Of a DNA stretch of 64,000 bases, positions 7,631 through 64,000 are shown one piece after another; position 1 is the first letter of the stretch; every line of letters begins with the position of its first letter. The notes beneath the pieces were generated by a model that made no database searches, was not told where the DNA came from, and was given only the letters and a program-made list of their open reading frames with translations. The stretch is from assembly GCA_050084515.1 (NCBI GenBank), contig CM114271.1, positions 7,626,001 to 7,690,000 of the forward strand, read 5' to 3'. The position numbers were made by a program, and so were the translations under genes. This DNA is from Blasia pusilla (Eukaryota).

Positions 7631-7638
7631 TATAAATA
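7631..7638 (+). promoter_or_regulatory. Candidate TATA box of the cargo gene
   Basis: TATAAATA about 280 nt upstream of ATG 7913, just after the palindrome cluster. Confidence 0.5.
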
Positions 7639-30583: not shown

Positions 30584-30659
<76 letters not shown>

Positions 30660-30680: not shown

Positions 30681-32194
30681 TGATTTTACAAGTTTGAGAT
30701 TTTCTTTGGGAGAAATGAAGGCACATACACTGCCAAATTTTGTGTAGGAGTGAAGATTGAAGGGTTGCACGACAGTCCTTGCCAATTTTTCATGGAAGGT
30801 TGAATGGAGGAACTGGTTTAATAAGGTCATAGATCAAGAAGATGTGCACGCTGCCAAAGAAATGGTGCACAATTTTGAGATTGAAGCACAAAGTTGTGGT
30901 TGATCTTGCAAGCTGCCATAGCCACCATTCCAATGTGTGAGTGAAATTTCGGTTCATGGTGGTAACTTTTCGTGTGGGGTAGCAAAGTATCAAGTAGTTA
31001 CTTTTTGGGAGGTAAAAAAAGTGGAGTGTCATCTAGTGCCAATTCTTGCCGTTGATGAGCTAATGATCATCATATGGCACCATTTTGCTTGTTTGTTTTG
31101 GGCGCAAAAACTAACAGATGAGTCGTTCTAGTAGCCAATGGCATGGTTGATTAAGGGAATTTCTTGTCGAGCCGACGTCACCAAGAGGGCCAATACAATT
31201 ATGTCGGCATCAAAACAACGTGCACTGCTCTTTTTGTTTACCTTCCAGTGATGGTAGGTGACCTCTTGATGTATGGGTTTTTAATTGTCTTTCCGCTGTG
31301 CTATGCATAGTGTTTAGTAGCCGCTCAACGACGATCGAGTACCGTGCCATGATGCCCATAGCTGCACCATCACAGGGGAGTAAAGCGTGTCTTGCTGATA
31401 GAGGAGGGTATGCCGTTGAGTTCCGCATCCCATCACCGAGTGCCGTGCTATTTGTAATCATTCTGTGCCGCCAGTGCCGTCACATATCGGCAGGTTCCCA
31501 GCACACATCGAGGAGATTTGAGCATCGTCAATACTAGAGGAGTACAACTTGCCTATTAGAGGAGTCTATCTTCATGACCGAGTCAAAGTCAACATTTGCA
31601 CTTGCTAAGGAGCAACATCGATATTTTTTTAGGTAACCCATGCTAGTCTTTTTCCCTACACGTGTTAGGGATTTCCAAGTGTTGGTGCAGTTATTGGGGC
31701 TATTGGGATTTGTGTAGATGTTAAGAGCATCATTGTTGTATGTGGTTTAGGGGATATAGACCTATGTGGGATGTCCAAAATTGAGGGTATGTTCTATCGA
31801 TGAGATGATAGGACAGTACTAGATTTTCCGCATCACGCCCCTTGTTGTAGCACAACACACGTCTCAGTGAGAAAGTTGTCGTGCGCATACGCATCGCTAT
31901 ACAATATACATCGCTGTCATCGAAGATTCACACAAACAAGCATGATCCCATGCTTACTCATGGCATCCAAACAATGAGATAAGAAGTACCAAAATATCTC
32001 CAATCGCCTCCCCTAGCTTGTGGTTAGGTCCCTCTAACTCCAGATACCCATCTATCCCTACCTACCATGACATACATCTCTCGGACGCTAAGAGCAAAAA
32101 GGCCAGGTACTCATGTGGCCCCATCGTTAGTCGCCTTCTTGTCATCCATGTCACAGACACAAGTCAAAATCTAGAAATACCTACTCTATGTACT

Positions 32195-32335
32195 TTGGGA
32201 CTCATCCATCATGCCCGATGAACCCTAGTGAGAGGTGGCGTGAGACATGCCATATGCCACCCTCTTGAACATACATCACAAACTAGCATAGTGGCTGCAC
32301 CACGCGCGGAACCACACAACAAACATCGCAAGCCT
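32195..32335 (-). pseudogene. PHD finger at the C-terminus of element C integrase
   Basis: CLLC...MLVCDVCSRGWHMACLTPPL; last Cys pair decayed. Confidence 0.85.
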
Positions 32336-35259
32336 GCATGAACTACTGCTAAGCTTGGATCAAGTGAACCATCAATGTTAGGAAGATGACATGGCGCAAA
32401 GTTATGCACGTGGTCCTTCCAAACCATACCATCTCCGCACTTCAATAAGAGAACGCCAGATGACAAAACCTCATGCACACTCAAGATAGTGCACCCTGCA
32501 GTTACATCCAACATCATGGGTGTCGTATGCTCCAATTAGACATAGTCTCCTTAATAGACGAATGGCTGTAGGAACTCTGACTCTCAGCCATAAAGTAGCA
32601 AGTACGGTGAGAAAGAGATTAAGGATGCATGCATATTGAATCTGTATCCCATCGCCAACAAGAGGTCCCAATCTCTTTGGTAATCTCTGTGCAAACCATA
32701 CTTGGGTAATCCTCTCTTCACCGTCTGCACAACCCTCTCCGCTAGTCCATCCCCCTTAGGATGATCTCGCAAAGTGGTGCGGTGGTCGATCCGCGCCTGA
32801 TCACATAAGCCCTGAAACTCATCGCGAAACTCTGTACCATGGTCTGTCAACACCTCACGTGGTGCACGGTAATGGCTGAGCACTTGATCTAGGAAGGCAT
32901 ACACTAGTCCCTCACTTGCTTTGTCAGGCAATGCAACCAACTCTATCCACTTCAAGAAGTGCTCCACCATCACCAACACATAACGACTATGGCACTCCGT
33001 CAAAGGTAAAGGTCCTGCAAAATTCAAACTCCATCTTTAACCTAAACCCATGATCGAAAGTTGATGCACCTGTGGAGTTAGAACATTGAACAATGCTTGG
33101 ACCTGATCACACACCATGCACATGGCAACAAACCGTTGAATGTCAGTCTGCATACCTTGCCACCAATACTATATCTGGAGCAAGCTATGCATCTGCTTCA
33201 CTCCAAAATGACCCAACTCCTCGTGGGCATGACGCACCAAACGTGCTCTCTATGAAGAATGAGGCACTAAATGTACTCTACCATCCTCCCAAACTTGCAA
33301 CACATGTGTCCCCTCCCACCAGAACCGTCTTGCTCATTGTAGGATTCGATCCCGCTCTCTAGTACCCACTGTGCTCACGACAGCCAATGGCAGGTACTCC
33401 AAGACTACTCCATTGTTATGGATGTCTCGGCCATCTGTCGTCTCCTCATCGGTCTCTGGATCTAAGGACTCTCCATCATACTTTGCCTTCGAAGTCTCAA
33501 TATTCTAGGTCTCCATAGCCAACGAGCCCAAATAGGTTGACGCGTGCCATCCTTGTAATAACTCCTCATCACTCTCTCCATGCCAACGAGCTCCAGTTGC
33601 ATCCCGCTGGCTCGAGCATGGGTAATGGCTCCAACCATCTGCATCCAAGTTAAGCGTCCCACGTCTATGTACCACGTGGAAGTCATACTCAAGTGACAAA
33701 AGAGCCCACCTCGCAAGCTTCCCTTCAAGCTTGTCGGACTCCATCAACTACTTAAGAGGCTGATGATCAATAACGATGGTAAAGGGATTTCCGAATAGAT
33801 AACATGTAAAATGCACGATAACCCACACTGCAGCCAAGCACTCACCCTCATACAAGCTATACTTTGCCTCTGTAGCATTGTTCGAGCGAGTAGCGTAAGT
33901 GACTACGAACTCTCTATCCTCATCATAATGTTGGGTGAGGACGGCTCCAAGCCCCAACATTCTCCAATCGTTATGCAATTGGAAATGATGCCCCCCGATC
34001 GGTCTCCTCAATATGGGTGTGCACGTTAATTGGTCCTTGAGCAGCTGAAAGGCTCTCTCCTGCTCATCCCCCTAGTTCCACTCTTGATCTACCTTGGTTA
34101 GCGAGGTTAGCGGCTTTGCAATCGCATTGAAACCCTTGACATAGTGTCGATAGAACTTCCCATGAATGCATGAACTTAATAGATAGATGTTCGATAGAGC
34201 CAATTCCATGATAGAACGTTGATAGAGCCAATCCCATGAATGCATGAACTTGACTCACATCTGTAGGGCGTGGAATGCGTGAAATAGCCTCTACCTTTTT
34301 CCGTTGCGCACCAAGGCCACCTGGGCATATGGTATGACCCAAGTACTCAATCTGGTCATAGCAAAACCTGCACTTGCCTGGATGTAGCTTCAACCCATGT
34401 AATAGCAATCGTCGAAACACCTCCTTTAGATGTCACTCATGCTCCTAAACCATGGCGCTAAAGACTACGATGTCATCAACATAACACCTAGAAAACTCCA
34501 GACCTCCCAAGATCCTATCCATGACCCTCTGAAACTCAACCGGGGCGTTCTTTAACCCAAATGGTAAGAACCACCAGTGGTACAAGCAATCCCTTCCATG
34601 AGGATCGATGCCCTAGAATGCCGTCTTCTCCTTATCCTCCAATGGGATAGGTAGCTGATGGTATCATGTTCAAAGATCTAACGAAGTGAAGACCTTTTCA
34701 TGCCCAGTAGCATCAAAGATCTCATCAGGGATGGGCATGGCATACCTATCGGACTTTGTCTCCGATTGATAGGTTGATAACCTCCACACATCCGCCTATC
34801 CGTCTAGTTGCCATGCACATCCTTCTTGGCGGGCATGACTTTGGCAGATGCATACTCTCCATGCAACATCTCCACGAGTCCTACTCCAACCAAGTCGTGG
34901 CTCCTATTATGAATCCAAGCACTCTCCATATCACTTTACTTGTAGGGTCTTCGAAAGATCGGTGTGTCACTCGACAACTCAATGCAGATGTCGGGACCCT
35001 TCAGTGTACCCAAATCATGCATTCTAAATGCAAAAAAGCTCCTATAACTCTTCAAGAACTGATGTATTCGGCGCCACTCTTTCCGTCAACTTACGGCCTA
35101 AATCTCCATTGTGATAACGGTAGGATTCTCCGGGGCGGGTATCGGTGGTTGCTATGGTGCAACCCAGTCTTGGATATAAGAACTCGACTACTCCCCTGCA
35201 GCCAACTACAAACTTTGATCTCCTCCACATGTAGTATATACACAACAGCTGTGATCTGT

Positions 35260-36520
35260 CCCAACCTCAAACACCGCTGCTCATCAACTCCTAAGCTGAA
35301 AATAAATGTCAAGCAGTTCAGGTGCATCGCTTGACCCAAGACATGATGTCGTGATGCCTCTGATAGTGACGGTACTATCGTCACTCCTATGGGGAATCCC
35401 ATCCCTTGCTCTCGCTCATCGGCGTTGGGCTCTACCAAGTGTTGTACCTTGTCATCCTAAACCAAGCCTAGCACGGCCTCCTTGAATGCATAGGAAGCGG
35501 GAAAACTTACAAATGTGGGAAATGGTGCCCATGGCATGCCAATCTTGTTGACCACAGTCAACGGAGGTCGATCATCATGCCGTATTGCTTGTGACCAACA
35601 ACCTCGATCTAGAATAGAATCCACCAACAAATGGAAGGGGCGCTCCACTATCGCATACGCCCTCCTCAAAACCTCATGTGGCACCAAGTTTGTCCACCAA
35701 CAAGGTTGTGTGTGGACAAAGTCCGTGTCCGTGGACTAATGTCCCTCCTATGGAAGAACTTGTCCATATGGGCCCCAGCTTTCCCTTCTTTCTCATTCCC
35801 CTTACTTGCCTTCGTGTTCCATACTCTCCCATTTCTTCCTCCCTCCACCTCCACTCCCTCCTCCCTCATTGCTCCTCTCATCCTTGCCTTGCCTTCCATC
35901 ATGGACTAAAAGTGTGGGTCCCACCTCTCGGAACCCATGTCCGTGGACATATCCAAACTTGTTCGTGCATGTCCGTACTAAGGAAGGACTTGTACTTAGC
36001 AACCATGTCTACCAAAGACACAGGCGATGTGCTCGTGAACCTACACTCGTCGCATCCAACAACATTTCCGGGCCGATCCATGCTCGTACCTGATGTGCAC
36101 TTATCACCACTCACTATCTCAAATCGCCAAAATTGGCACATTCTCCTGAATGTATGTTGGAGAACGGGACTGATGTTCTTCCAAGTGACGCAAGATCTGC
36201 GTCATCTCCCAAAACAACCTAGATTGAGTGTCAGCCAATCCACTACCTCGTCGAGCACTCGACTGGCACAGACACGACCAACCAGCAATGACCAAATCTA
36301 TGGTCCCTATGCGGTCCAAGTTCTATGCCCCCAAAAATGAAATGTCCCTCAGTACGGAACTGTGGTAACCCTAGATGGCGGACGCAGACAACAACTCGAG
36401 AAATTGGAGGCGTAACTGCGCTACATGGTGAAGTGAAGCGCGCCTTCCAACATCATCAATCTCAACGGATAGATACTCTTGCATGCACACTCGTGCCTGC
36501 AAAACAACACCTAAGCTAGT
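35260..36520 (-). pseudogene. DNMT3-like C5 methyltransferase of element C (motifs II-X), disrupted by a ~0.4 kb foreign segment at ~35715-36120
   Basis: YLSVEIDD, DLVIAGWSC, SRLFWEM, YIQENV, EREQGMGFP, SRHHVLGQAM. Confidence 0.8.
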
Positions 36521-36665
36521 TGTCGTGCGCATACATATCGCTACACAACATACATCGCTGGTCACATCTACACCATACAACACCGATCTTCCCCACACAC
36601 GGGTTGATCCACACATATACAAAAATCAACTCATACATGTACATGGAGATCACACAACCTCTCCC

Positions 36666-39591
36666 CTAGCTGGCGCCATCTACGTTTGGCACATGACATG
36701 GCGCACATGGCGTACCATTGCGCACATGATCCTTCCAAACCATACCATCCGGTCCCTCCAACATGAGGACTCCGGTCGGTAATACCTCGTGCACACGTAG
36801 GATCGTGCGTTCTGTAGTGACATCTAGCGTCGTGGGTGCCGCCTGCTGTAAATACACGTAATCTCCAAGATCAAACCTCCTAATCCTCTGGACGATAAGT
36901 TCCTCCACGAATGGTCACGTACCTCAATGTATCTCTATGCTGAGCAATAGCTAAGTTCTCAAAGGCCATAGGCATAACTCTACAAAAAACCTCCGCCCTC
37001 TCAGAACATGCTTGTACCCACACATCTGGATCATCAAGATCTAACACCTCCGCCATGTCACGTCAAATGGCTGCAGGTAAACCTGGCTCTCTCCCAAAGA
37101 GCAAAAAGTATGGTGAAAATGACGTCAAGGATGCCTGCCGACTAAAGCGATAACCCATAGCCAACCATGGCAACTGTAGGTCCCACTCCCTCAACTGTCC
37201 CCGCTGCAAGCCATACTTGTGCAACCCTCTCTTCACCGTCTCTACCACTCTCCCCGCCAACCCATCCGCCTCAGGATGATCTCTGGACGTGGTGTGGTGA
37301 TCTATCAGCGCCTGATCACACAAGGCTTGAAACTCTCCAATGAACTCGGTACCCTGGTCAGTCAACACCTCTGCCGTTGCACCAAGGTGACTAAGCACAT
37401 GATCTAGAAACACATAAGATGTTCCCTCGCTCGCCTTGTCCGGTATTGCCACCAACTCTATCCACTTGGAGAAATGCTCCACCATGACCAACACGTACAT
37501 GTGATGACGCCCCGTCAATGGCAAAGGTCCCGCAAAGTCTTAACTCCACCGATAACCTAAACCCATAATCGGAAAAGGATGTAAGTGCGGAGTGGGAGCA
37601 TTGAAGGATGTTCGCACTCTGTCATATACCATACATCTGGCCATAAACTGCTGTACCCCAATATGCATGTCGCGCCACCAATACTGAACTTGGAGTAAGT
37701 TGTAAGTATGCTTTACTCCAAAATGTCCCAACTCCTCATGGGCATGTTGCACTACAGGTGCTCGCTAGGAAGGATGAGGTACCACTCATTTCCTACCATC
37801 TCCCCATACCCGCAAAATGTGAGTCCCCTCCCACCTGAACCTCCTCGCTCGCTGTAGGATCCAATCCTGCTCCCTAGCACTCACTATGCTTGCTTTGACG
37901 CCAGTGCGCAAGAACTCCACAACCTCCATGTCGTCATGGATATCACGACCACCTGTCGCCTCCTCACTGACCTCTGGATCCAAAGACTCATCATCCAACC
38001 CCACCACTAGAGTCATCACCTCTGGCTGACCTACCATAATCAACCAACAAAGATAGGCAGATGCATGCCACCCGGGCACCATCTCCTTATCACTCTCTTC
38101 GTGCCATCGAGCTCCTATGTGGTCTCTCTGACTTGGACGGGGGTTTTGACTCAACCCATCCACATCCCGGTTCAGCCAACCTGGCCTATGAACCACCTCA
38201 AACTCATACTCTTGTAGTAATAGAGCCCACCTAGCAAGCTTTCCCGTAAGCTTGTCGGACTCCATCAACCACCTCAGCGGCTGATGATCAGTGATAAGTG
38301 TGAAAGGGTTGCCAAATAAATAGCACCTAAAATGTGCCACGGCCCACACTGCAGCCAAGCACTCTCCATCGTAGGAGCTGTACTTTGCCTCTCTAATGTT
38401 GTTTGATTGGCTTGCGCAAGCCACCACCAACTCCCTCTCCTCGTCATCCCTTTGAGTAAGCACTACTCCTAGACCCAACATGCTCCAATCCGTATGTAGC
38501 TGGAATGGGTGACCCCTAATCGGTCTCTGTAAAATGGGTGAGGACATCAACCTGTCCTTGAGCTCTTGAAATGCTCGCTCCTGATCATCTCCCCACAACC
38601 AAACCTGATCAAGTCTCGTCAACAAGGTCAAAGACTTTGCGATCGCACTAAAACCCTTGACATACCGTCAATAGAAGTTTTCCAGTCCAAGAAATGCTCA
38701 GACTCGACTCACATCTCTAGGGCGTGGAATTTGCGCAATTTGAGCCTCTACCTTCATTTTCTGAAGGCCTTACCCACTTGGATATATGATGTGTCCCAAG
38801 TACTCAATCTGCTCCTGAAAGAATCTGCACTTGCCTGGATGTAACTTCAGTCCATGTAACTACAATTGCCAAAACACCTCCTTCAGGTGTCGCTCATGCT
38901 CCTCAACCGTGGAATTGAAGATAAGTATATCATCTATGTAACATCGTATAAAATCCAAGCTAGCTAGAATCGTATCCATCACTCTCTGAAACTTTGCAGG
39001 CACGTTTTTCAACCCAAATGGTTTTTATCCGACTCCCAACACCTTCACATCTCATGGTTAATCTAACCTCCACATATTGGACTTACAAGCTCGAAGCCGA
39101 TGATAGCTAGCACAGAGATCTAAAGAACTGAAGATCTTTGCATGCCCTACCGCATCAAAGATCTCCTGAGGAGTAGGCATGGCGTACCAATCTTACCTCG
39201 TCTGTCGATTGATAGGACGGTAATTTCCACACATCCGCCTATCTGTCCAATTGCCATACATATCCTTCTTCGCCGGCATGACTGTGGCTGATGCATACTC
39301 CCCATGTGATAACTTCACAAGTCCTGCCTCCAACAAGTCCTGACTCCTGTTCTGAATCAAGGCTCGCTCCATATCGAAATATCTTTAGGGTCGACGAAAG
39401 ATCGGCGTATCACTAGCCAACTCAATCCGTATCCCGTGACCCTTCAGCGTACCCAAGTCTCTCATACTAAAGGCAAAACAACTGACATGCCCTCTAAGAA
39501 ACCTATAAACTCGCCATTGCTCTCCTCCTATCAACTTGAGACCAATCACAGGCTCCCAAGTCTCCATCCTTACCTCACTCGGAGAGAACAC
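36666..39591 (-). pseudogene. Element B RT, RNase H and integrase
   Basis: IRIELASDTPIFRRP; CYIDDILIF (~38930); FQLHTDWS, YDGECLAAVWAV, ITDHQPL; HEELGHFG; VMVEHFSKW; VLTDQGTEF. Confidence 0.92.
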
Positions 39592-39849
39592 AACCTCCGG
39601 CTTTGGTTGCTATGTAACAACCCTAGCCACCTCCGCAACACCTACTCCACTCTAACCTCCTACACCATGCTCCACATCCAAAAAATGAACATGTCCTACT
39701 CTAGCGGCCTTTGCACTCTCTGCTCGAACAATGTTCCAAGAAGTCCATGGGTGTCTATCTCTCCTCGTCCCGCCCCCAGCCAATGCTTGTACGGACCCTG
39801 TAGGCAATGGTCCAACTCATGGACATGATGGCATGGATGACACTCGCAT

Positions 39850-40830
39850 CCGTCTCTGCTCAGCCATACCTAGGCTGACTATCCATGTGAGACACTTGAG
39901 GTCCATCGCCTCCCCCAACAGCTGTCTCCGGGATGCCTCAGTCATCCCTGGCACCGCCGTAGTACCAGTAGCGAACCCCATGGCGCGCTCACACTCATCT
40001 TCTGTAGGCTCCTCCAATGCTCGGGTCACCTCATCCCAAATCATGCCTGGCCCTCCCTGACGAAAGGCATGGGATGCTCGGAAGCTCATCAACGTAGGTA
40101 AGGCTGCCCTCAACTCCCCCACCCTATTAGCCATGGCCAATGGTAGTCTATCATCCCGTGTCACCACCTGAGATTGACGCCCTGAGCCCAAAATAGCATC
40201 CACTGTGAGATGTGGTGCTCTCTGGACTCCGTTGTATGCTCGACTCAGTACCTCTGATGGTATCATATTTTTCCACCACAGTCGTGGACGATGGGCACGT
40301 GACCCAACTCTCGCTGCATCTAACAACCCAGCACGTCGCAACGAGGACCTCACTTGATGCACACTCGTCATCACACGTGCACGAGTGTCTCCCAAAAATA
40401 GCACGTTCTCCAAAATGTACGCTGGAGAACATGTCAGACTCTCTTGCAAGTGTCGTACTACTCATAGTATCTCCCAAAACATCCCTGACCTCGCATCTTG
40501 CAATCCAAATCCTCAGCCAACTGACGAATGACCCTGACATGGCCATCCAGCAATCACCACATGAACGGTGCCAACTCTGTCCAGATCCTGCGCCCCCACC
40601 AAAGAGATGTCGGTGGGTAGTGTATGCTGATATCCCCGTACTTCAGATATCGGCAACAACTCATGATACCTCTTGACCAATCTTGCCACGTGACGTAATG
40701 ATACTTCCCGCGCGGTCTCATCTCTCTCCACATAAAGATACTGATGCACTCATATGCCCGCTTGCAATATTCTAGCCAATCCGGTGCTAATCCCTCCAAA
40801 GAGATCTAACACCCTAACACCCTCCTCTTG
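39850..40830 (-). pseudogene. DNMT3-like C5 cytosine methyltransferase of element B (most complete copy)
   Basis: Motif I VLDLFGGISTG; II YLYVERD; IV VIAGWPCQG; VI YILENV; VIII RAHRPRLWWKN; IX ECERAMGF; X RRQLLGEAM; at least one in-frame stop and one frameshift. Confidence 0.9.
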
Positions 40831-40965
40831 ACACTGCCACACAACGGGTGTGGTATCCAGTGGGATCAACGTCTCCACTCCAGGAGCCCGATCGCCACCT
40901 GACTCTTGCTGCTCCGGGATAAAGGCATGACTCCACGCCTGCCTCATGAGGTCGTCGGCACTCCT

Positions 40966-42010
40966 CTATAGCTCTCCAATCGTACTCCACAATGGTGAAG
41001 AGTTCTCGCCAACATGGGAAGAGACACCCGCCATGGCTTGTCTCTCCGTGGGACTATCCGCTACACAGACATCCTCCGCATGTGCGTTCCCCTCCAACAA
41101 GTCTCCAGGCCAGCTAGCACTACCTGTGAAAGCTGCCAACGTGATTACACACTCGCCTCGTGATCGACCACCTCGTCCCGCAAAGTGCACGGGTAACTGA
41201 CTCATCCGCCCGTCACTTGACCGCCACCGTGGCCGATAAGCAACGGTCTCCTCCCAAAAGTCAAGGATGAATCCTAGGGGATATAACACTGTACTCCCCA
41301 CCAACATATCATACGACTTAGCTGGTGTCGTAATCGCTTGTGTGCGCACCATAGCACTATCCATCGCATGCTCTGGCTAGACTCAGAAAACTATCTCCTC
41401 TTGAGTCATATACTGTGTGGGTGACACGCCCCCAATCGAGGTCTGTATCTGGAAGGGACAAGGCTCAATGTCCGCCTTCCGTAACCCCAACGCTAAACAT
41501 GCCGCCTTCCCTAACATCAAGGGTTGCGCTCTCGCATCAAGTAGGACGCGCTGTGGGTGGTATATTGTCCCCGTAGGATTAATCAAGCGAAATACTCCAG
41601 CTCGGCTATTCAGTAACACTACTCCAAGTGTCACCACTACTCGCTCTATGGCCGGTCGAGCTGGCATATCTACCAACTTTGCCGCCGCCGCATGCCATGA
41701 CTCTGTGGGAAACGTCCCAAGCACCGGCTCTAAGGGCAAGTCCACCACCTCGTCAACTACCTCTGAACAAGAAGCTATCACCACTCCATGCTCACACAAT
41801 GTGGCGGCAAGCCGAAACACCTCAGCTTGTCCAACTCCCAACGTCGCCAACTTTGTGGCAGAAAATAGCGGAGTTTGACTCACTCTGGTGGCCACCTCCA
41901 ACACTATGGTCGACACTGACTCCACTCGATCCAGCATAGGAGTTGTCACTCCAACTCCTCGTGATGTCAACGTACTTGCCTGAGCTATACACACCGCTGG
42001 TCGTCGAGGC
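40966..42010 (-). pseudogene. Element B gag-protease linker and aspartic protease-like domain
   Basis: RVLLDARAQPLML (paralog D: VLLDLGAQPLML) and SYDMLVG. Confidence 0.7.
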
Positions 42011-43926
42011 AGGGGGTTGGTATTCTGGCATGAAAGAGCAAGAGAGGAGAGTCTCTCTTCAAAAAAAAGGGCCAAATCTGCCTCCTCTCTTCAAAAAAAT
42101 TTGACATATTTGAAATTTTTGTTTCCTTTCAAATTCATGAAATCTTTAGAAGAGAGTAGGTAGTGGTCCACATTCGGGCCTAAAGAAACCTCCTTTTTCC
42201 AGTGGGCGGAAAAAAAGTAGACATCATAAGACCATTACAAACATTTTTCCATCACTCTCCATGTGAGCCTAAGTTTCTTAACATTTCTTGTCTCGCTCTA
42301 CAATAAGCAATGCCCATGGGTATTTTTGTTGGAGGACCACTGATGGATCTTGATCGATGCACGATGCCAACCTCTCTTTTTGCAGGGATTGTTGCCTGCA
42401 TCATGGCCTCCCCTAAATTGCCTCATAACCAACTTTCTCTTGGTTATGAATGGTGTCTGCTCAAGACCAACTTTGTGAGAATGTGAACACATTAGATGAT
42501 AATTGAACCAAAAGATTGTTAGATGTCTGGAGTAAAGAGGAGTTGATGTCCCTTCATTCAGATCCTAAATGTGAGAAACCGAGAAGCTGCACCCCTCCCA
42601 ACCCGTCGGAATTTTACAGGTTGCAACTCTTGCAATCCGTCGGAATCAGACGGCTTGCACCCCTTGCAAGCAAGCTCACCATAAGAAAGGAAAGATTTTG
42701 AGAAGTGATTCCATTCCACCCTGCACCCACAAAAATCCAACAGGTTGGGAATCCGAAATGGCAATCCGACAGGTAGTAGGAATCCTGCACATCTTAGACA
42801 AGAAAAGAAGCCTACAATAGGTTTGACAAATCTAGGGGAACGAGCCAAAAGTGAAGAAGCCAGCCACAATGCGTCAGAAGTTGGTCTCACAGGGAAAGAG
42901 TTCGATCACTCAAGCAGCTAACCTGTTGGAATCCGACACCTTGCCTGGAAATGGTTAAAAAGTTGCAGTGGTCAAAAAGTGAAAAGTTGCAACCCTTTGG
43001 AATCATACGGGTTGCAAAATTGTAATTCTGAGTAGCTAGAAGAGCACAATCCACAAGTCCAAAAACAATATTCAACAAACTTTTACAAACACCATTATCG
43101 GTTGAAAAAATCTCGTCCTTTATTACATCCGAAGGAATCTTGGAAATGTACATTTGACCTAGTCTATGATTTCTTCAACCTCGTCATCTACAAATATACT
43201 CCTAACTCTCCTAGGTTCATGTACAAAAGGAATGTCCTGGGATACAAGTGGCTCCTCTGGCCGATTGTAGACGGGGATCGAAAATGTTGGCAAATTCGAG
43301 AGCCTTGGCCCCCCCCTAGGAACACTGTAACGGTCCCATGTAACCTGATTTGAGTCCCACCGCCTTCCTTGGCAGTATATCTTGTACACTTTGCAATGTG
43401 ACACCCATCCAGTATCAATATGTGCTCCGTCCTTGGAAATACCATGATGGCAATCCAACAAGTAGTAGGAATCCAAGATGTCTTAGAGAAGAGAAGAAGC
43501 CTACGCCTTGTTTGACGATACTAGGGGAAGGTGCCAAAGTGAAGAAGCCCGCCAAAATGTCTCTAAAGAGTCCGAAAGAGTCCGATCACTCACGCAGCCA
43601 ACTTGTCGGAATCCGACTGGTTGCTTGGAAGTGGTTAAAAAGGTGCAGTGGTCAAAAAGTGAAAAGTTGCAAGCCGTGGAAATCCGGCGGGTTGCAAAAT
43701 AGAAGTCCTCGGAGTACATAGACGATCACATTCGACAAGACCAAAAAAGATATTCAACAAACTTTTACAAACACCATCATCGTTCGAAAAAATCTTGTCC
43801 TTTATTACATCCGAAAGAAGCTCGGAACTGTACATTTGATCTATTCTATGAAATATTTTGCCTCATCATCAAATAAATCCCTACTCCAAACGTTGCAGTC
43901 AAGCTGGGTCCTTGAGTTCTTTGAAC

Positions 43927-46900
43927 TCACTCATCATCATCCGAGAGCTCTTCCAAGATTACTGTCGGCCTTGCCCTCCCGATTTTTGGAATCGTGGGAA
44001 GTGACAATGGTGTCACTACCAATGGTGGGTCTGAAACCGGAGCTCTCGGCTTTGGAGGAGAGTTGTACGTCCCAACTAGCCTGTCATAATCTGCCTTTGC
44101 CTCCTTGCAAAGGTCAAACAGTTGCTGCCTTCCCTCAAGGCAAAGAATGTTCCTGCCACTCTGCAAGGCGCCCCTGATACTCGCCCCTGATACTCGCCCC
44201 TGAAAGGCCCACTAAGTCGAACACCAAGTCACCCGGCCTTGAGCAGAGCTCGATGAGCGTTTGCATCAGGGCTAGCGACTTTTCCCTTCCTCCAAGTAAT
44301 GGGGTACCGTCTTACATGAAAATTCCTCGGGGGGAATTGTATAAACTATCTAAGCTGTACCCATCGGAGCATGGATCCACAGGATCCAGGATCTTAAACA
44401 CCTGGAAGTTGTGCTCGGGCCGAACAAAGGAGTAAACATAGGAGTGTTCCATCTGTAAAGAAGCACGTTGGAAACAATGTCAGCAACAACAAAGAGCAAC
44501 TTGGCCATTGGTCTACTCTCAGTATGGTGATATAATGTGCAACACGTCCCCAAAGAACTTCGCTTAACCCCAGAGAACTTCTTTATAATCCTAACATTGG
44601 AGCAACCTGTCGGAGTCCGACGGGTTGTTTTACAAGTGGCTTGTGATTTTTTTGTCCATGAGCAACCCATCGGAAGGCGACAGGTTGCTGGCTTAAAGCA
44701 GCCCATGGTTGGCTAAGAGCAACCCGTCGCTTTCAGACGGATTGCAAACAGACCCAGCTCAAACAATCCGACGGGTTGCATGTAGAGATGCAACCCGTCA
44801 GAGAAAGATAATTTGGATACAAATTTAGAGCCCTTACCCGAATTTGACTCGTCACGGATCGGAGTGGGTACTCGTTCTTCATGACCCACGATTGCGCCGT
44901 CCTCCACTTGAGGGACCTCTTGACGTACTTGAGGTTGAAGAGCTCGTCCTTGCTCCCTCCAGTCAAAACTAAGAAATAGCCCCTGTCACTGAGATAAGCG
45001 TCTGCAAAGGAAAACAGGAGCACAATCTGGTCATAAGAAAGAGGGACATTCCAATCTGGGACCCCGTCGGACAGATTCTCGTCCCACAAGCGCAACACCG
45101 AGGGCAAATCAGCAACGAGGAGATCCACCACCACCTCTTCGACCTCCCCATGGACCGTCCAAGGAGTGTGGCCGTTTTGTTGAAGCATTCGTCCCAGGGT
45201 TGTCAATTTTTTGATGGTGGGTGTCGACGATTGGGAACTGAAACTTTTCAGCTCATCTTGAACATTTGTGCAGTGAAGGATGACGCTTGTCCGGGTCGTT
45301 GTTTCTCTATGTCTTCCCAAGGATGATGGAGTGTATTCCACATCCTGGTCTGCTCCTTGGGACAACCATGGCGCCTATCGCTTTCACTTCTCCCGAGTCT
45401 GCGGTCTCTATGACCTCAGACTCTGGTGGCGTTTTCTTTGCGGAGGACCTGGTCCGACCCTCTCTCTCTGCTCGCCCGAACGACTCCGGCTTTCGCCTTG
45501 AATCTCTAGCCTCTCTTTGGGAAGACTCGGCCTCGGAATTCTTCGATCCCCTTGCCTTGGCTTTGAGACCCGCTGTAGATTTGTCCTTGGCAATGACGAC
45601 CTTGGACACCAACTCCGCTGTCTCGAGGGCTTGCTCCTCCGTATCTCCTTCAAAAAAGTCTTCAAGCTGCACAAAATTGGGGATGTCGTCCCTACCTACG
45701 GCCACTGCATCATAGAGCAGGCGTAGATCTTTCTCAATTATGTCCTCAGGGTCGTTGAAGTCCAGCCAAATTGGGCAATTCTCCACCTCCCAATCGAACA
45801 TGCTTTGAGCCATCTCCATGTCGTACATGGAAATTGTCTCTCCATCAGGCAGAGAAGCCCACAATTTGCAAGCTGCCGGTATTTTTTGCCATGTACCTGC
45901 ATTCTTACAATGGACGAGGTACCTGAACACCATGCGTTGGGAAGCTCTTAGTCGAGATGCATCGGCCGCCTGCTCTTGAAGATCTCGCTTCTTCTTTGCG
46001 AAATCCTTTTTTTTCACCTCTATTTCTTCGTCAAGGTCTGCCTGAGGGAGGATGCGATCCTTGAACATTGTCCTGAAACATTTTTATGGGCTTGTCCCAC
46101 ATGTCATCAAGCCAAAGTTCAAAATTTTCAGCACTCTCCAAGTTTGCTTCCTCCGGAACTGGCTCTTTTCTTTTTAGCTCCGCTTGGAGACCCACGAGCA
46201 TGGACTTCCCGAGAAGCCGCAACGCGTCCCAGAATGACCATTCATGGAGCCAATGGGAGATCACTCGATCAGAGACACTCGGAGGATGGTGTGCCGCCCT
46301 CTTTTGGGCCTCTGTGCCCTCGAGACTGATTTTCATCAGTCGGATTCTCCTAAATTTGCTAATTCCAGACAAGGCAAATCGATGCACGCAATCGAGAGAC
46401 ACTTTCTCCCCAATCTGATTTGCGGATCTTCATCCCTCTTCCGCTGGCGCTTGATGATCGCCTTCAGCTCCTTGTAGAAATCGGGGCCAAGTTTGGGGTT
46501 AAGAATGGCGATGTAGCGCTGCATCTTGCTTGCCGTATACTTCGTAGCTATAAATACTGCAGCATGGATGAACTTTGCACGCTCAAACATAGACACTTTC
46601 TCCCTCCTCTCCAGCTCCAATGCACTCCTCTTCTTGGCGGCCTGTATCTTCGACCAGCAAAGGATTGTCACGGCTGCATCTTGGGAAATAAACTTATTTG
46701 CCCAAGTCTTTTTTTATATTTGATCACCCTTTGCCAGCATCTCATTTACAAGGGCGTCGCCCAAAACCCCTTGTACTCTGTCGGGTGCATCGTTAGCACT
46801 TTCTTCACCCTATCGCAATCCTTGATCCAGTGGTGGGTGACATTCCCCTCCGATACAATCCTGCACATCCAAACTCAATATTAGAAATTTTGCAAGGTAC

Positions 46901-48821
46901 ATGGGTTCCTGCAACCCGTCGGACTCCGACAGGTCGTTATTGCTCATGGTCGGAATGGAAGCAACGAGCTAAATTTTGCAACCCATCAGAATCCGACGGA
47001 TTGCATTCAGATTTGTGATTGCCTGGTTTCAACCCGTCGAACTCGGACGGGTTGTCAGATTATCTGTATTTAGAGAGTGGTTTCCGCGAGAAAAGTGAAC
47101 ATATCAACCCGTCGGAGTTCGACAGGTTGCGCAATTTCAATTAAAGTTGCAATTTGACCCAAAAAAATGTAGCTCCCCTACTTCGGAATGCAACTTGTCG
47201 GACTCCGACAAGTTGCTTTCAGCCAGAAACATCAAAAAACATCCCAAAACAGCTTCGAGTCAAGCAACCCGTTGGACTCTGACGAGTTTCTTTCTTCAAA
47301 AAACATCCAAAAATAGCGGTGAGTCGAGCAACTCATCGGACTCCAACGAGTTGCTTTCGGCCAAAAACATCCTAAACCAGTGATCAGTCGAGCAACTCGT
47401 CCGAGTCCGACGAGTTGCTTTTGGCCAAAAACATCCTAAACCAGAGATCAGTCGAGCAACTCGTCGGAGTCCGACGAGTTGCTTTCGGCCAAAAACATCC
47501 TTAACCAGTGATCAGTCGAGCAACTTGTTGAAGTCCGACGAGTTTCTTTTGGCCAAAAACATTCCAAAAATAGTGGGGACTCAAACAACTAGTCGGAGTC
47601 CGACGGTTTGCAGCAAGAGGAAACTTACGGCATGCATGGCCATCTCCACCGTCGCCATGTGGTGAGGGTATGGATGTAGCACCACTGCCTTCACCCAAAA
47701 ATGTGCCTCCAATGAGTTTGGGCGCTCCTCTGCAAACTGGGTCCACGCCATGAACCCGTGGTTTCCATCCCAGATGAAGAAATACAGGTTCCGCATCCAG
47801 CTGAATTCCGTCCCCTCTGTCGCCCTTCTGAATTCCTGATCACTCATCCTCCGGAATGTGTCGAGCGCTTCCAAGTCCTCCTCCATAACCAGCGCTTGGG
47901 TTCCAAGGTCATCGTAAGGCTGAACATAGAACGGAGGGAAGCTGTCGACGTAGGATGTTGTCGCTGCCGATTGTTTCAGCTTCGCAATATCCTCGTCAGA
48001 CTGAATTTCGCGGATGTACTCCATAGTTCGCAATCGGCAAAGTGGAATTCTCGGGGTGTATTGGCCCTCCATCAATGCCATCTGCTTTACCACCTATCAC
48101 AACGGGGACAAGGTCAATAAGCTACACTGAATTGCCAATGAATTGCAACATGGGCCTTCACATAATTCAATGAACACAGATCCTCTCTTACCCGCTCAAA
48201 GATTGGGTCGGTGTCTTGGCCAGCCAACTGCTCTGGGACAGCAACTGGCAAGTCCACTAGAAACTCGTCGATCCGATAGAGGTCAATTTCTTCCGCCGGG
48301 CTTAGGGACGAGGATGACTGCTCTGCTGCTTCTTCAGCGATGTCCACCATCTCCACGCTGGCGGTCCTCATGACCTCATTGTCCGTCACTTGAACTTCGG
48401 CCGTTTCCGCTATATTGATTGTGTCCCGGGACTTCATTGCGGACATTTCCTGCATCTCAACACTTTTGGTTGGACCGGCAAGGCTTTTTTCAATGGCAAT
48501 TTCTTTTTCCCTCCGAGCTTTTTCCAATTCTGCTCTCCTCACCGACGCCTCCAGACGCTTCTTTTCACGCTTTTTGTCGGCGACCCTTTTCTTCAAGGCC
48601 TGCGACGCCTCAGCATCTGCGTTCTATTTTTCGAGCGCCTCATTTACACGCTTTGCAAGAAGCTCCTGCTTGTGCATCTCCGCTTCCCTTTCCCGCTCCT
48701 CGATTTCTTGCTGCCTTATCTCATTGGCCGAACGAGGCCCTAGAGATGGTGAAGCAGAAGTCCTCATGGACTTGGGAGTGAAGCTCCCAGGCTTGTTTGC
48801 TTGAGATTTTTTCCTCGTCAT
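43927..48821 (-). pseudogene. Cargo gene copy 2 (ParB/Srx-like plus N4/N6 methyltransferase-like), multi-exon
   Basis: MTRKKSQANK start; FFIWDGNHG; VDLLVADLPSV...FADAYLSDRGYFLVL; ...QSGRNILCLEGRQQLF; GT donors near 47628 and 44837. Confidence 0.7.
47190..47615. repeat. Intronic tandem array of ~64-bp palindrome-containing units (about 7 copies)
   Basis: gagcaact recurs at 47326, 47390, 47454 and 47518. Confidence 0.9.
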
Positions 48822-50675
48822 TGTTCCCGAAAATGCCTCCTATGGACAAGGAAATTGCTCTCTATGCACGATGAATCGGCTCAAGGAATCGCCTTTATGA
48901 GTCGCCTTGCTGATGAGGCGATGAGTCCCCTTGATGAATCGGCTTGCTGATGTCGCGATGAGTCGCCTTGATGAGTAGCTCGAATCATCTCGCGATCGTT
49001 CGCTCGAATCGTCTCGCGATCGGCTGATGAGTGGCCGTGTAAAGCACCCCTTGGTATCTGGTCAGCTGTTGTGCGGAAGAGCAATTGAGATCTTGAAACG
49101 AAAAACCGGAAATGAGCGAACCTTCCCCTATTTTTACTTTTCGAGCCGTTGGGCTGACCGTTGGGTCGCATCGTCCTTCCGACGACGACGTGCCGGCCAT
49201 TATGGAAGTCTGGACGTGAAAAAAACCAACCCAACAGCTTCGACACATTGCACGCTTCCCGAGGGTTCAAGGCATCCGTCCTCGTGGCAACCCGTCGGAG
49301 ACCGACAGGTTGAGCGCCTCCGTCGTCTTCAAACAAGAACACAAGGTACCCGCGCAATCGTCGGAGACCGACAGGTTGCACGCCTATGTCGTCTTCGGAC
49401 AAGAATGCGAGGTACCCGCGCAACCCGTCAAATTCTGATGGGTTGCACGCGTCCCTCGTCTTGGGATAACAAGCCAGGCTTCCCGCGCAACTCGTCGGAG
49501 GCCGACGGGTTGCGCGCCTCCTTCGGAAGGACGATGCGACCCAACGGTCAGCCCAACGGCTCGAAAAGTATAAATAGGGGAAGGTTTGCTCGTTTTCGGT
49601 TTTTCGTTTCGCAATCTCAATTGCTCTTCCGCGCAGCAGCTAACCAGATACCAACGCTTACAAGGCGAGGCACTTGCGCAACCCGTCTGAGGTCGACGGG
49701 TTGCGCGCCTCCACCGTCTTTGGGCAAGAAGGTGTGGCCCGTGCAGCTCATCGGAAACATACGTGTTGCACCCTTCCTTAATGTAAGTGTAACAAGGTGA
49801 GGCAATTGCGCAACCCGTCTGAGGCCGACAGGTTGCGCGCCTCCCCCGTCTTCGGGCAAGAAGGCGCAGCACCCGCCCAACTCGTCGGAGATTGACGGGT
49901 TGCACGCTTCCTTCATGTTAGCGTTACAAGGTGAGGCAGAAGCGTGCAACCCGTCCGAAGCCGACGGGTTGCACGCTTTGCTTATCTTGGGTTAATAGGC
50001 AAAGTACTAGGGTTCCCTGTCGGTTATTGACAGGTTGCACGCTTTTCTATCCCTCGGGTAACAATGCGACAACGCATAGTTCCGAGGCAACCCATTGCAA
50101 TCCGACGGGTCACAAGATCTACCTTGAGTTGGACAATCCCGCAAAAGTCCCCAACGATTGGTTGCCTTAGCATATGCAAGCGATATCTTGTGTTTGGTGC
50201 TAGAAAAATCGACTCAAAAAACCTTTGGTCGGCAAGAAGGGGGTACCAACCCAACGGACTCCGACGGGTTCCAACAAAATGAAGTGCATGCTTCGAAACC
50301 AACATCTTTGATTCCCAAATTCTGCAACCAACCTAACTCCAACAGGTTGCAACAGAATTGAATCCATTGTGTCAAACATTTTCAACTACCAAACTTCATC
50401 TTGTCAGTCAAATTCTGTCAGGAGAATCTGAAACCCTATTCACTATAAATTAAACATTCTCATTCTCATACCAATTCTCTCTCTCCTCCCAATGGAATCT
50501 TCTCGGAATGGACAATTATGTGAAGCTCACTTGTGGCGGTCATCTAGCAGCCCTTCCTCAATCAGAAATCGTTCGACCGCAAGCTCGTGAGTCTTTCATA
50601 GCAGTGGATGAAAATTTTCTCTCAGTTTGATTTCTTCTCCAAATTGGAACCATCTTTGTATCCAAGGATGTTAGG

Positions 50676-53600: not shown

Positions 53601-54495
53601 ACAATATGGGATTCTAGTAATGGAGGTGGATTGCAACCTAAAACGGTGGCATATATCTCAAAGCAACCCAGGACGTGGACCCACTTGCAGGGTAGGGTCT
53701 AATGGCATTAGGAGAGCATGCGGCACTTTCCTAAATAAGAACTGTACAAGGACTGGACGACCACTGCCTGGGTTTTCGGGACTCAAAACCTTTGATCGTT
53801 TCACGAGGACCGGGGATCAATTGAAGTACTTCTTCTGCCCAAATGAATCTTGTGCTTTCCGGAAGTCTTATCCGGCTGCCATTGGAGCTCCGGGGAATAC
53901 CCCCACGATTTGGCCCATCGCCGCAGGTACGAACTGCACTCAAGACGAAGTGGACAATCTGACAAGTGACGGTTTCAGACTCGTAGACGGAGGAAGTTCG
54001 GAGCATGTTTGCATTACAAAGACCTTCGCATTTTGTATTCAACCCAAGATTGACGTCAACATGTACCCGGAGAAGGTGGATAATCTCAATCCACTATTTC
54101 TGTTTGAGTCTAGAAATGGGATGAAGAGAAACAGAATGTGTAGGCCAATGGTGGAGAGAGCAAAGCGGATTGCATCACCTCGGGAGGCAAAAATGGAGAT
54201 CATCGCCACGAAAGATGTCCTGAGTGGAAATGGAATAGGAAGGATGTATTGGGTTAGGAACAACACTGTAAATTCAAGTGTCACAGGGGTGTATGTGGTG
54301 CACATATGTTGCTTTCCCACATGTTCATGTGATGACTTTGTCCAAAGAGACACAAGTGGCAAAAGGTATTTCCCTTATAAGCACATGTACTATGTGTTGC
54401 TAGTAATTTTAAGAGAGTCGGAGGTAGGAGTAGGAATCCACCAACCAATTCTGTCCCTTAAAGAAGTGCGAAGTATTTTAAACAAACCACTTTGA
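50676..54495 (+). pseudogene. MULE transposase copy 2, intron 52502-52991
   Basis: GCM-like Cys/His pattern, WVSFDICY, GFMADN, AESVH (~53040), SWIM CSCDDF...YKH; cag|GTGAGT...TTGCAG splice sites. Confidence 0.82.
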
Positions 54496-54907
54496 GGATG
54501 CAAAATGAGGTTTTAGATTGTACTTTCATTTTTCCATAACCTTCACTTTGAGCTTGAACTCTATTCAACCTAGGGCAAATGATAGATTTTTTCCAGACCT
54601 TGGATGGAAAAAGTGATTGGTTCCACACTTATGATTCCACTGATTTTTCAGTTTTCTAAATTTTGTGCAATTTGCAACTCGTCGGACTCAGAGGGGTTGC
54701 CAAAATATGGAAGAGGAAAAAAAAACTGTGGGACTGCTTAATAACTGAGCAAAAAAGTGCAAAAAAATTCACACAAAAATTTTCCTTTCTTCAACCCAAC
54801 GGAAAATCTCTTTAAAAAAAAGTCTCTATTTTGGTTGAAGGTAGTTTCCTCTCTCCTCTCTCCTCTCTTCCTCTCTTCCTCTCCTCTTACCGCACCTCGT
54901 CGAGGCA

Positions 54908-60300: not shown

Positions 60301-60329
60301 TTATCAATGAAATCTCTCATCACATCTCA

Positions 60330-60790
60330 TACCAAGCTCTCCATGGTGTGCACTCTCTCTCATGTCAAACCAAGCCCATTTTCTTGATAAGAGGCTTGGG
60401 TAACACACACAAGGCAAGGAGGACAATAGCTCCACTGCCTCATGCCAAGAGGTTCATCAAAGAGAGAATGAGCTTTCAAGTTTTCTCTCTTGGAGGTATA
60501 TCCCCTTCCCTCTCCCAAGCTCTCTCCTTGGTAGCCTATGCTTGCAGGTCACCTCCTTGGCTCGTGACCTCTTGTAGTGGGTCAAGGGCCACTTCCCAAA
60601 GTGGAAATTCAACTATACCAAAAATGGTAAGTTCCTCAATATGGCTCCAAATGAGCCAAAACGAAGGAGAAACCTTCTCTCGTAGGTTACCCATGGCCTC
60701 AACAGGTCATCCTTGACCTCTTGAGGCTGTCCTCTAGTAAATCTTGGAGGCACTCTACTAGATCTCGCCAATCTATCCCAAAAGACGTGA
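60330..60790 (-). repeat. Dispersed repeat, inverted homolog of 30140-30680
   Basis: Reverse complement aligns by eye with 30140-30680; separates elements C and D. Confidence 0.8.
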
Positions 60791-63700: not shown

Positions 63701-64000
63701 GAGTGTTGGACAAGGTAGTGGATTGGCTGACGCTTGTTCTAGGTTCTTTTGGGAGATGAGGAGGATTTTGTGAAATTTTCAAGAGCATCTATCCGGTTCT
63801 CCAACTTACATCCTAGAGAATGTGATGATTTTGGGTCAGGCGATAGAACGGAACTGCTTGACCTGGATCATTAACTTAGGAGTAGTTGAGTAGCATCGGA
63901 TAAGGTTGCAATAGGTCACAGTTGCTGCATGGTTGAGTCCCATGCTTACCGAGATGGTTGAGGTAGTGGTTGCGGGCGAGATCCGAGGAGATCGACATAC
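60790..64000 (+). mobile_element. DNMT-carrying Gypsy element D (gag, protease, DNMT; runs off window), decayed
   Basis: KFNPFTAW gag block; HCQRYGH knuckle; VLLDLGAQPLML; VLDLFGGISSSL, YLYIEID, DLVIACWPCQG, YILENV, then a direct jump to LGQAI (internal deletion ~63830). Confidence 0.85.

Follow-up and report, generated by a model that had tools for sequence, protein, structure and literature searches.

Results

Three methyltransferase-bearing Gypsy copies

Within the window, i.e., the whole 64,000-nucleotide stretch of DNA analysed here, three copies of a Ty3/Gypsy retrotransposon have a C5 cytosine methyltransferase (DNMT) encoded directly after the protease and in frame with it; copies B and C are on the minus strand and copy D is on the plus strand. 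All three copies are old, diverged, nested and dead. An earlier note, made from the letters alone, had described these diverged copies with methyltransferase motifs behind the protease, and tblastn and read-through translation bore out both the positions and the motifs that it gave. The features are as follows.

36524..58411, minus strand: copy B as a whole, a Gypsy-DNMT3 element that interrupts the DNMT of copy C and is in turn divided by the 12.9-kb repeat X2; the DNMT of copy C breaks off at 58412 and picks up, with the same residue, at 36523 (tblastn)
54903..56414, minus strand: gag of copy B, with two CCHC-like knuckles and 19 stops in 504 codons (tblastn of P0121, aa 1-490, and read-through)
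42035..54887, no strand assigned: the 12.9-kb repeat X2, which separates gag from protease in copy B but is unrelated to the DNMT element and does not belong to it (the P0121 alignment breaks here at aa 484/490)
41240..41560, minus strand: aspartic protease region of copy B, with a degenerate D-S/T-G motif read as VLLDARAQ and the C-terminal LVGSTVLYPLGFILDF (read-through; aligns to the protease part of P0121 and P0142)
39823..40902, minus strand: DNMT3-like C5 cytosine methyltransferase domain of copy B, with three TGA stops (motifs, Pfam and structure-database matches)
39610..39612, minus strand: in-frame TAG of copy B between gag-PR-DNMT and RT-RH-INT, in the context TAG CAA CCA (39612-39604); the same site is seen in relatives
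38784..39480, minus strand: reverse transcriptase (RT) of copy B (RVT_1 at 1e-18 on the 39609-36526 read-through, residues 154-275; wider limits from tblastn of P0150)
38205..38595, minus strand: RNase H of copy B (RT_RNaseH 4.4e-32, RT_RNaseH_2 5e-29)
37272..37773, minus strand: integrase of copy B, H2C2 zinc domain and catalytic core (Integrase_H2C2 2.8e-11, rve 7.8e-12)
58412..60285, minus strand: 5' half of copy C, with a gag remnant, the protease and the first ~39 DNMT residues (58412-58531) (tblastn)
31874..36523, minus strand: 3' half of copy C, with the remaining DNMT (35253-36523), RT, RNase H, integrase and a PHD finger (32212-32535) (tblastn; PHD 1.3e-7 and 2.3e-6)
60700..64000, plus strand: copy D, with gag, protease (~62314-62934) and DNMT (63354-63911), extending past the end of the window (tblastn)

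From 42033 to about 36900, the minus strand of copy B is one frame encoding the protease, a linker of about 100 residues, the C5 methyltransferase, RT, RNase H and integrase, and only point stops interrupt it. A methyltransferase out of frame with pol, which the earlier note had named as a finding that would speak against its reading, is not what copy B shows, as protease to integrase share a single frame. The order PR-RT-RNaseH-INT, with a Gypsy-type RNase H and an H2C2 integrase, is found in copy B, in copy C and in L038, a relative from a metagenome, and identifies these elements as Ty3/Gypsy. Stops occur in 8 of 807 codons of the protease-DNMT part (the TAG at the boundary excluded), in 13 of 903 codons from RT to integrase and, as listed above, in 19 of 504 in gag; from protease to integrase there are 24 in 1,784 codons (11 TGA, 7 TAG and 6 TAA), one of them the conserved TAG. 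The read-through of gag gave no Pfam match at 1e-3, and Asp_protease_2 did not match copy B itself; this Pfam domain is present at the equivalent place in the relatives P0138, P0142, P0146 and L038.

The methyltransferase of copy B (minus strand, 40902-39823) translates in a single frame, through three TGA stops, into 360 aa (P0001). Motifs I (VLDLFGGISTG), IV (GWPCQGHS), VI (ILENV), VIII (RAHRPRLWWKN), IX (ECERAMGF) and X (RRQLLGEAMD) follow each other in canonical order and are not rearranged. Pfam DNA_methylase (PF00145) matches P0001 at 2.1e-8 (34.4 bits against a cut-off of 22). When the region is cut at its stops, no piece matches Pfam, and the domain of copy B is therefore visible only on read-through.

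Without X2, copy B is about 9.0 kb long, compared with about 9.1 kb between the LTR ends in the relatives L063 and L006. Its frame changes near 36900, and it ends ahead of the PHD finger that copy C and the relatives carry; many genomic reads diverge from it at 36557/36560. The PHD finger and most of the 3' LTR thus appear to have been deleted from copy B. A recognisable LTR pair was not found in it, only a 66-nt GT-rich match, and its last 30 nt had no match in its 5' region. A possible 4-bp duplication, CAAC, at its ends is ambiguous.

Nesting could be followed with P0121, a Marchantia gag-PR-DNMT protein. Its aa 1-490 align to 56414-54903 and its aa 484-1260 to 42033-39667, both on the minus strand of copy B; since the alignment is broken across 42035-54887, X2 has inserted into copy B. 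A second repeat, X1 (2242-14082), matches X2 in inverted orientation at 75-90% identity. P0121 spans protease and DNMT in single pieces in all three copies (B, 42033-39667; C, 59176-58412; D, 62790-63836). A tblastn search of the window with P0001 found copy D at 63354-63851 on the plus strand (57% identity, 2e-54); query residues ~176-328 are absent there through an internal deletion, and the tail lies at 63828-63911. The same search found copy C on the minus strand at 36523-36125, 36131-36012 and 35717-35253 (46-55% identity, 4e-35 and 1e-42), with its N-terminal piece at 58531-58412 (1e-8) and frame changes along the domain. As had been claimed, the catalytic PCQ is intact in B and in D, which retains WPCQG and ILENV, and ENV is present in all three; in copy C, PCQ is degraded to SCLCQ and ENV is retained. 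The 5' half of copy C (58412-60285) mirrors copy D at 61557-63441 with 76% identity, in inverted orientation.

By sequence, the methyltransferase is of the DNMT3 type

Compared with solved structures, P0001 alone was closest to DNMT3B and DNMT3A (3.6e-8), followed by M.HhaI (3e-3), a DRM (1e-2) and DNMT2 (0.2). A profile built from 13 family members sharpened this order: DNMT3A/B/C came first at 1e-19 (~74 bits), DRM followed at 1.5e-11 to 1.7e-9, M.HhaI at 1.5e-6 and DNMT2 at 1e-5, and DNMT1 was not among the matches at 0.01 or better. The likeness to DNMT3 noticed from the motifs is thus upheld, and by these comparisons the methyltransferase of this family classifies as DNMT3-type, closer to DNMT3 than to DRM, M.HhaI, DNMT2 or DNMT1. 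Pfam scans of copy B, L038 and 40 relatives showed no PWWP, ADD or plant DUF.

The catalytic residues bear on what the domain may do. Four of them, namely Cys, the ENV Glu and the two Arg of motif VIII, are jointly retained in 145 of 146 sequences in which RT precedes the DNMT and in 69 of 89 in which the DNMT precedes RT (these two groups are described below). In 83 of the 146 sequences of the former group, the Pro of the PC dipeptide is replaced by Glu. This replacement would suit a domain kept by selection for something other than methylating the DNA of the element, such as methylation of genomic or host RNA, as by DNMT2, or service as a binding module that recruits or titrates the host methylation machinery. 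The position of the DNMT next to the RNA-binding Gag in ORF1 would suit it as well. Likewise, the domain of the Klebsormidium nitens Gypsy-DNMT3 gave no methylation in yeast, in the only published assay of a Gypsy-DNMT3, a result that the text of the paper terms inconclusive, and its authors raise RNA methylation for another transposon-borne DNMT (PMC5890265). However, a pure binding module needs none of the four catalytic residues, which are nearly invariant, and the nearest solved relatives are the DNA enzymes DNMT3A/B/C and DRM, with DNMT2 far lower. We therefore regard a role apart from DNA as quite unlikely and prefer action on the DNA of the element.

The methyltransferase is a feature of the family

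Genomic DNA reads of the host, of at least 85% likeness, cover the entire 5.6 kb of copy B. Summed over both strands, the DNMT bins have a depth of ~1,000-1,200 and those of RT-RNase H one of ~630-1,800. As the DNMT is covered about as deeply as RT, nearly all copies this similar must carry it. In the host, the family is abundant, the depth of ~1,100 coming from about 1 in 100 of the reads of one DNA run.

Relatives were sought in metagenomes, where 421 stretches matched a pattern, 256 of them encode a relative and 80 were retrieved. Most of these loci are decayed, and a plus-strand ORF of at least 500 aa is present in 6 of the 80. A search for intact copies, which the earlier note had proposed as a check, yielded L038. 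Its ORF1 (1369 aa) encodes gag, protease (708-757) and DNMT (from 940) and is followed by a TAG and, in the same frame, by an ORF2 of 1047 aa with RT, RNase H, integrase and a PHD finger (990-1034). The protein clusters nearest to copy B contain members of 1322 and 1329 aa. Direct repeats flank the DNMT in L063 (337 bp, 91%) and L006 (307 bp, 94%), ~8.75 kb apart.

Over the DNMT, copy B compared with 27 relatives gave a pN of 0.244 and a pS of 0.706 (raw proportions); over RT-RNase H, 14 pairs with copy B gave 0.213 and 0.738 (raw proportions). This comparison is rough because pS is saturated, and a Jukes-Cantor corrected dN/dS could be computed in 3 pairs only; roughly, the DNMT seems constrained about as much as RT. 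The proposal that a DNMT3-like methyltransferase between protease and RT is a fixed feature of this Gypsy family is supported by its in-frame order in B, C and D, by intact relatives of like order, by the equal read depth and by the profile match to DNMT3.

The window invites a more trivial account, in which the DNMT is foreign to the element and is a pseudogene of a host DNMT3, a foreign insertion nested there or a chimera of the assembly, caught by chance in one Gypsy copy, as the region is indeed a nest of insertions (B in C, and X2 in B). Nevertheless, three copies share the same in-frame order, DNA depth over the DNMT equals that over RT, 256 of the 421 pattern-matched metagenome stretches encode a relative, L038 is open across PR-DNMT, and the DNMT and RT trees (see below) share one split. 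The shared order, equal depth, open L038 and concordant trees refute the pseudogene or chimera reading, to which we give next to no credence, and leave the DNMT as a resident of the element.

A conserved stop codon follows the methyltransferase

When the sequence upstream of the RT start was followed in 57 metagenome loci, 35 showed a stop in the context TAG/TAA-CAR-YYN (28 TAG and 7 TAA) at the site homologous to that of copy B; the remaining 22 loci are mostly distant or otherwise decayed. Among 17 aligned stop sites, TA[G/A]CA is invariant in all 17, and the flanks differ. The TAG CAA CCA of copy B is in frame with both flanks. A TAG closes the gag-PR-DNMT ORF of L038 and L037, with RT-RH-INT continuing in the same frame, and predicted proteins from three subgroups terminate at this stop. 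One protein with the domain order of copy B, P0170, has no stop and is a single open ORF of 2188 aa.

Murine leukaemia virus makes its Gag-Pol by UAG read-through, and the read-through context of tobacco mosaic virus is UAG-CAR-YYA. What the present elements share with these viruses is a UAG in frame, with CAA or CAG after it, at a boundary of the gag/pol type. Because the stop and its context are conserved, and in view of these viral contexts, the arrangement suggests stop-codon read-through. The likeness has limits: the boundary lies after protease and DNMT rather than after gag as in murine leukaemia virus, and after CAR most loci have CCC rather than the YYA of tobacco mosaic virus. A conserved RNA structure was not found downstream of the stop, where 3 invariant pairs without covariation were seen.

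Two architectures and the hosts of relatives

A profile search of 1.84 billion representatives gave 9,342 matches at E <=1e-3 and 429 at <=1e-30. The best 150 of the 9,342 are all of transposon type and score above 220 bits each; among them are many polyproteins, 1,000-3,456 aa in length. Among 20 long representatives, 18 have the order RT-RNaseH-DNMT-integrase (with a PHD finger after integrase in 17 of the 18), one is CCHC-DNMT-RT-RNaseH-integrase and one has the DNMT only. Similarly, in a set of 346 DNMT-bearing proteins, RT precedes the DNMT in 99, the DNMT is directly followed by integrase in 23, the DNMT precedes RT in 17, and neither RT nor integrase is present in 207. The sister group with the DNMT between RNase H and integrase is thus much larger than the group of copy B.

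The two architectures are separated in the trees. In a FastTree of 235 DNMT domains, a clade of 89 tips holds all 13 rows with the DNMT before RT and none of the 118 of the other kind. IQ-TREE with 61 DNMT rows recovered the split with an SH-aLRT of 98. An RT tree, likewise proposed earlier as a check, was built from RT-RNase H of 34 rows and rooted on the unrelated Gypsy element of the window; it places the elements with the DNMT before RT in one clade (SH-aLRT 96). As the DNMT and RT trees give the same split, the DNMT has travelled with its element since that split and one event moved it. The direction of this relocation may have been either way. Inconsistent positions of the DNMT, the other finding that was to count against a family feature, exist only between these two deep sister lineages; within each of them the order is consistent.

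In the 61-row tree, a 16-row clade with 100% support contains the rows from Marchantia, Calypogeia and Sphagnum, its only named members, and copies B and C occupy its base, each on a long terminal branch. The earlier note had held the family to be of interest should the host be a land plant, and this setting is supported indirectly by a clade whose named members are all bryophytes; going by this tree, the host would itself be a bryophyte. Named relatives with the domain order of copy B come from Marchantia polymorpha (many ORFs of ~950-1,330 aa), M. paleacea, Riccia sorocarpa, Calypogeia fissa and several Sphagnum species; the best identity of copy B to any relative in the protein searches is 66%. 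The other architecture has named relatives in Scenedesmus sp. (annotated 'pol') and Tetradesmus deserticola (a complete transcript ORF). In the elements of this architecture, chlorophyte ones included, the DNMT is homologous to that of copy B (33-40% identity), as are RT, RNase H and integrase, and a PHD finger follows integrase; they differ in having a single long ORF with the DNMT placed after RNase H and before integrase, and the best-supported split of both the DNMT and the RT trees sets them apart from the group of copy B.

The enzyme could also act in trans, on host DNA or on other transposons, either by spreading heterochromatin around the insertion or by holding transposition in check, which would let the family persist in many copies. 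The abundance of the family in the host (depth ~1,100 from ~1 in 100 of a DNA run's reads) and the Gag-like amounts of DNMT expected if the stop is leaky would be consistent with this notion, and self-restraint is named as a possibility in the text of the 2018 study (PMC5890265). On the other hand, the enzyme is delivered inside the polyprotein in both architectures, and such conserved delivery better fits action in the particle or the pre-integration complex. Action in trans is thus unlikely in our judgement, and action on the cDNA or insertion DNA of the element itself remains the preferred reading.

Decay and transcription

At 233 sites, the reads have C or G where copy B has T or A, and at 111 sites the reverse is true. 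Observed/expected CpG ranges from 0.57 to 0.68 across the three copies, which also show a TpG/CpA excess of ~1.3; in X1 the ratio is 0.94. Such C-to-T and G-to-A change and CpG loss fit the decay of methylated copies.

The family is transcribed in the host. In each of three RNA runs, 1,388-1,558 reads align to copy B, nearly all on one strand (e.g., 53 vs 0.6), which would be sense, provided that the libraries were made by the usual dUTP method. Most of these reads are less than 95% alike to copy B, and as only 9-11 reads per run are at least 99% alike, copy B itself is probably silent. RNA depth is several-fold lower over PR-DNMT (1.4-20) than over RT-INT (15-60).

Discussion

Relation to known elements

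Gypsy elements with a DNMT3 are an already known kind, described from Klebsormidium; here they are found in a new setting in which the nearest named relatives are bryophytes. The Klebsormidium nitens element, KnitGypsy-Dnmt3, is a Gypsy element with a DNMT3 domain that was acquired within its lineage and is under purifying selection (de Mendoza et al. 2018, PMC5890265). As far as the text of that paper goes, it resembles the present family in having an intron-less DNMT3-related domain with non-rearranged motifs in the Gypsy coding region, under purifying selection, and its copies are methylated and silent (PMC5890265). It differs in that the DNMT is said to share an ORF with RT and RNase H, and its repeats are described as DIRS-like (PMC5890265). 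In the clade of copy B, by contrast, the DNMT stands before RT, in the Gag-PR ORF ahead of the conserved stop; relatives of copy B have ordinary direct LTRs, and the named hosts of the nearest ones are land plants. By its sequence, the family of copy B falls under the definition of a Gypsy-DNMT3, i.e., a DNMT3-related domain inside a Gypsy polyprotein that appears to be kept by selection. K. nitens was not found among the named matches of the word-based protein searches, in which up to 8,000 candidates were scored, which is weak evidence of absence. New features of the present elements, as read from their sequences, are the DNMT in the Gag-protease ORF ahead of a conserved stop and the PHD finger after integrase.

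Other transposon-borne methyltransferases are less alike. SymbioDIRS-Dnmt3 of Symbiodinium dinoflagellates also has a DNMT3-type domain in a retrotransposon polyprotein, and it is the only transposon-borne DNMT3 that the text reports to methylate CG de novo, in yeast (PMC5890265); however, it is a tyrosine-recombinase DIRS element without a Gypsy integrase and is held to be an independent capture (PMC5890265). The EpiLTRs of Cymbomonas and Euglena are LTR elements with a cytosine methyltransferase and a chromatin reader, but according to the preprint text their DNMT is sister to DNMT4 and is at the 3' end of pol in Cymbomonas, they also have an adenine methyltransferase, and their reader is a chromodomain, not a PHD finger (bioRxiv 10.64898/2026.05.21.726589). 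Cellular DNMT3 enzymes (animal DNMT3A/B/C and, from the text of PMC6453930, Physcomitrium PpDNMT3b) give the best match to the catalytic domain and share its unrearranged motif order, whereas the copy B family has no PWWP, ADD or plant DUF, has a longer VIII-IX region and is embedded in a transposon polyprotein.

Neither Marchantia nor Sphagnum was found in the supplementary files searched, species tables included, of the surveys PMC5890265 and PMC12344493; the species table of PMC5890265 does contain Physcomitrella. In the available text of Sarre et al. 2025 (PMC12344493) and of the preprint 10.64898/2026.05.21.726589, streptophyte retrotransposon DNMT3 enters only by citation of the 2018 paper, and the text of Morozov et al. 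2019 (PMC6338049) calls such transposons absent from land plants such as tracheophytes. In the text of the literature searched, we found no description of a land-plant Gypsy-DNMT3 or of a Gypsy element with PHD finger and integrase.

Proposed mechanism

The window holds dead members of a Ty3/Gypsy family with a DNMT3-type enzyme after the protease, and we consider it rather probable that the second ORF of this family would be made by read-through and that its enzyme, where active, would mark the cDNA or insertion DNA of the element with 5mC. ORF1, seen in relatives and presumably the same in the host family, would encode Gag-protease-DNMT and end at the conserved in-frame UAG (UAG-CAR-YYN). 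ORF2 would encode RT-RNase H-integrase-PHD finger in the same frame and would be reached, most likely, by read-through of this stop. Because of such read-through, the methyltransferase would be made in Gag-like amounts, and it would enter the virus-like particle within Gag-PR-DNMT. There, an active de novo methyltransferase could place 5mC on the new cDNA of the element or on DNA at or around the insertion, and the PHD finger linked to integrase might read histone tails and so influence the choice of chromatin. The copies of the window have decayed since, mainly by C-to-T and G-to-A change.

A wider reading is tentative and, on balance, somewhat doubtful: an ancient Gypsy clade of the green lineage, with a DNMT3 writer and a PHD reader, would have survived into land plants and be abundant and transcribed in bryophytes, including Marchantia. 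On the bryophyte branch, the writer would have moved into the Gag-protease ORF ahead of a leaky stop, be made in the amounts of a structural protein, and mark the cDNA or landing site with 5mC before the host does. If this were true, early land plants would owe a real share of their de novo methylation to transposon-borne DNMT3.

Plants silence transposons mainly through cytosine methylation, and a transposon carrying a de novo methyltransferase is therefore a paradox. The organisms of both published cases are difficult to manipulate; the named relatives described here are in liverworts and peat mosses. For Marchantia polymorpha, mutants, transformation and methylomes exist; with many long annotated ORFs in this species, the puzzle of a silencing enzyme carried by a transposon would become testable in a model land plant. 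The DNMT in the Gag-protease ORF before the stop, the sister DNMT before integrase and the PHD finger after integrase offer handles on how such an enzyme is dosed and aimed.

Other elements in the window

A second Gypsy element, with gag-PR at 13961-15283, RT at 1510-2088 and integrase at 302-730, has an RT only ~30% identical; no DNMT was seen in it. An inverted terminal repeat was considered for 30142-30596 against 60353-60792 and rejected, as the pair more plausibly marks the 5' region of another copy. For repeat X, a protein-atlas look-up with its largest ORF yielded weak leads only (0.83, SWIM zinc finger).

Repeat X and the Gypsy elements that it interrupts

A repeat of 12-13 kb, which we refer to as X, is present in two copies in the window, and both copies sit as insertions within Gypsy elements. 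X1 lies between the gag-protease and reverse transcriptase (RT) portions of a Gypsy element unrelated to the DNMT3-carrying family. X2 separates the gag region of copy B, one of the decayed members of that family, from its protease.

Repeat X and parts of the unrelated Gypsy element
302-730: integrase of the unrelated Gypsy element
1510-2088: RT of the unrelated Gypsy element
2242-14082: X1, inverted relative to X2 (75-90% identity between the copies)
11912-12319, plus strand: ORF within X1 with an N6_N4_Mtase-like match
13961-15283, minus strand: open gag-CCHC-protease ORF of 441 aa, unrelated Gypsy element
42035-54887: X2, inverted relative to X1

The RT and integrase of the unrelated element are found 12 kb from its gag-CCHC-protease ORF, on the far side of X1, and this element shows no DNMT. 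The GA/CT-rich ends of X look like terminal inverted repeats. X1 has a CpG observed/expected ratio of 0.94, meaning that it is without CpG depletion, and the largest ORF of X yielded a SWIM-finger lead that is only weak.

The N6_N4_Mtase match of the ORF within X1 scored 22 bits, below the cut-off of 26.7, and spans the C-terminal AdoMet-binding part; the ORF carries GDLVFDLVGLSGAS where D-P-F-x-G-S-G is usual. This ORF would be what is left of a DNA methyltransferase of another kind, within the nest of transposons that also holds the DNMT3-like one. A bacterial 4mC methyltransferase has reportedly been acquired by liverworts.

Arrangement of the Gypsy-DNMT3 copies

The 5′ half of copy C (minus strand) and copy D (plus strand) form a head-to-head palindrome (58411-63441; centre near 60880-60920) with arms of about 2.5 kb that are 76% identical, and inside it there is a 44-nt near-perfect palindrome at 60859-60902. 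The segment at 30142-30596 matches the 5′ region of D (60353-60792) at 78% identity but runs the opposite way, and is probably the 5′ end of another copy of this family.

Arrays of a 152-bp tandem repeat occur within a low-GC stretch (GC of 0.35-0.39):
18627-21822: 152-bp tandem repeat arrays

Relatives outside the window

In the sister group, where RT precedes the DNMT, 83 of the 146 sequences compared have glutamate instead of proline in the catalytic PC dipeptide (ECQ), and the Cys, Glu and Arg residues are invariant. In one sister-group polyprotein, P0278, the DNMT is followed by an additional G-patch domain that lies ahead of the integrase. In the 61-row DNMT tree, the Sphagnum and liverwort rows are joined by short paths of about 0.4 changes per column, which is short for such old lineages and means that the sequences have been under strong constraint or else that elements have passed from one bryophyte to another.
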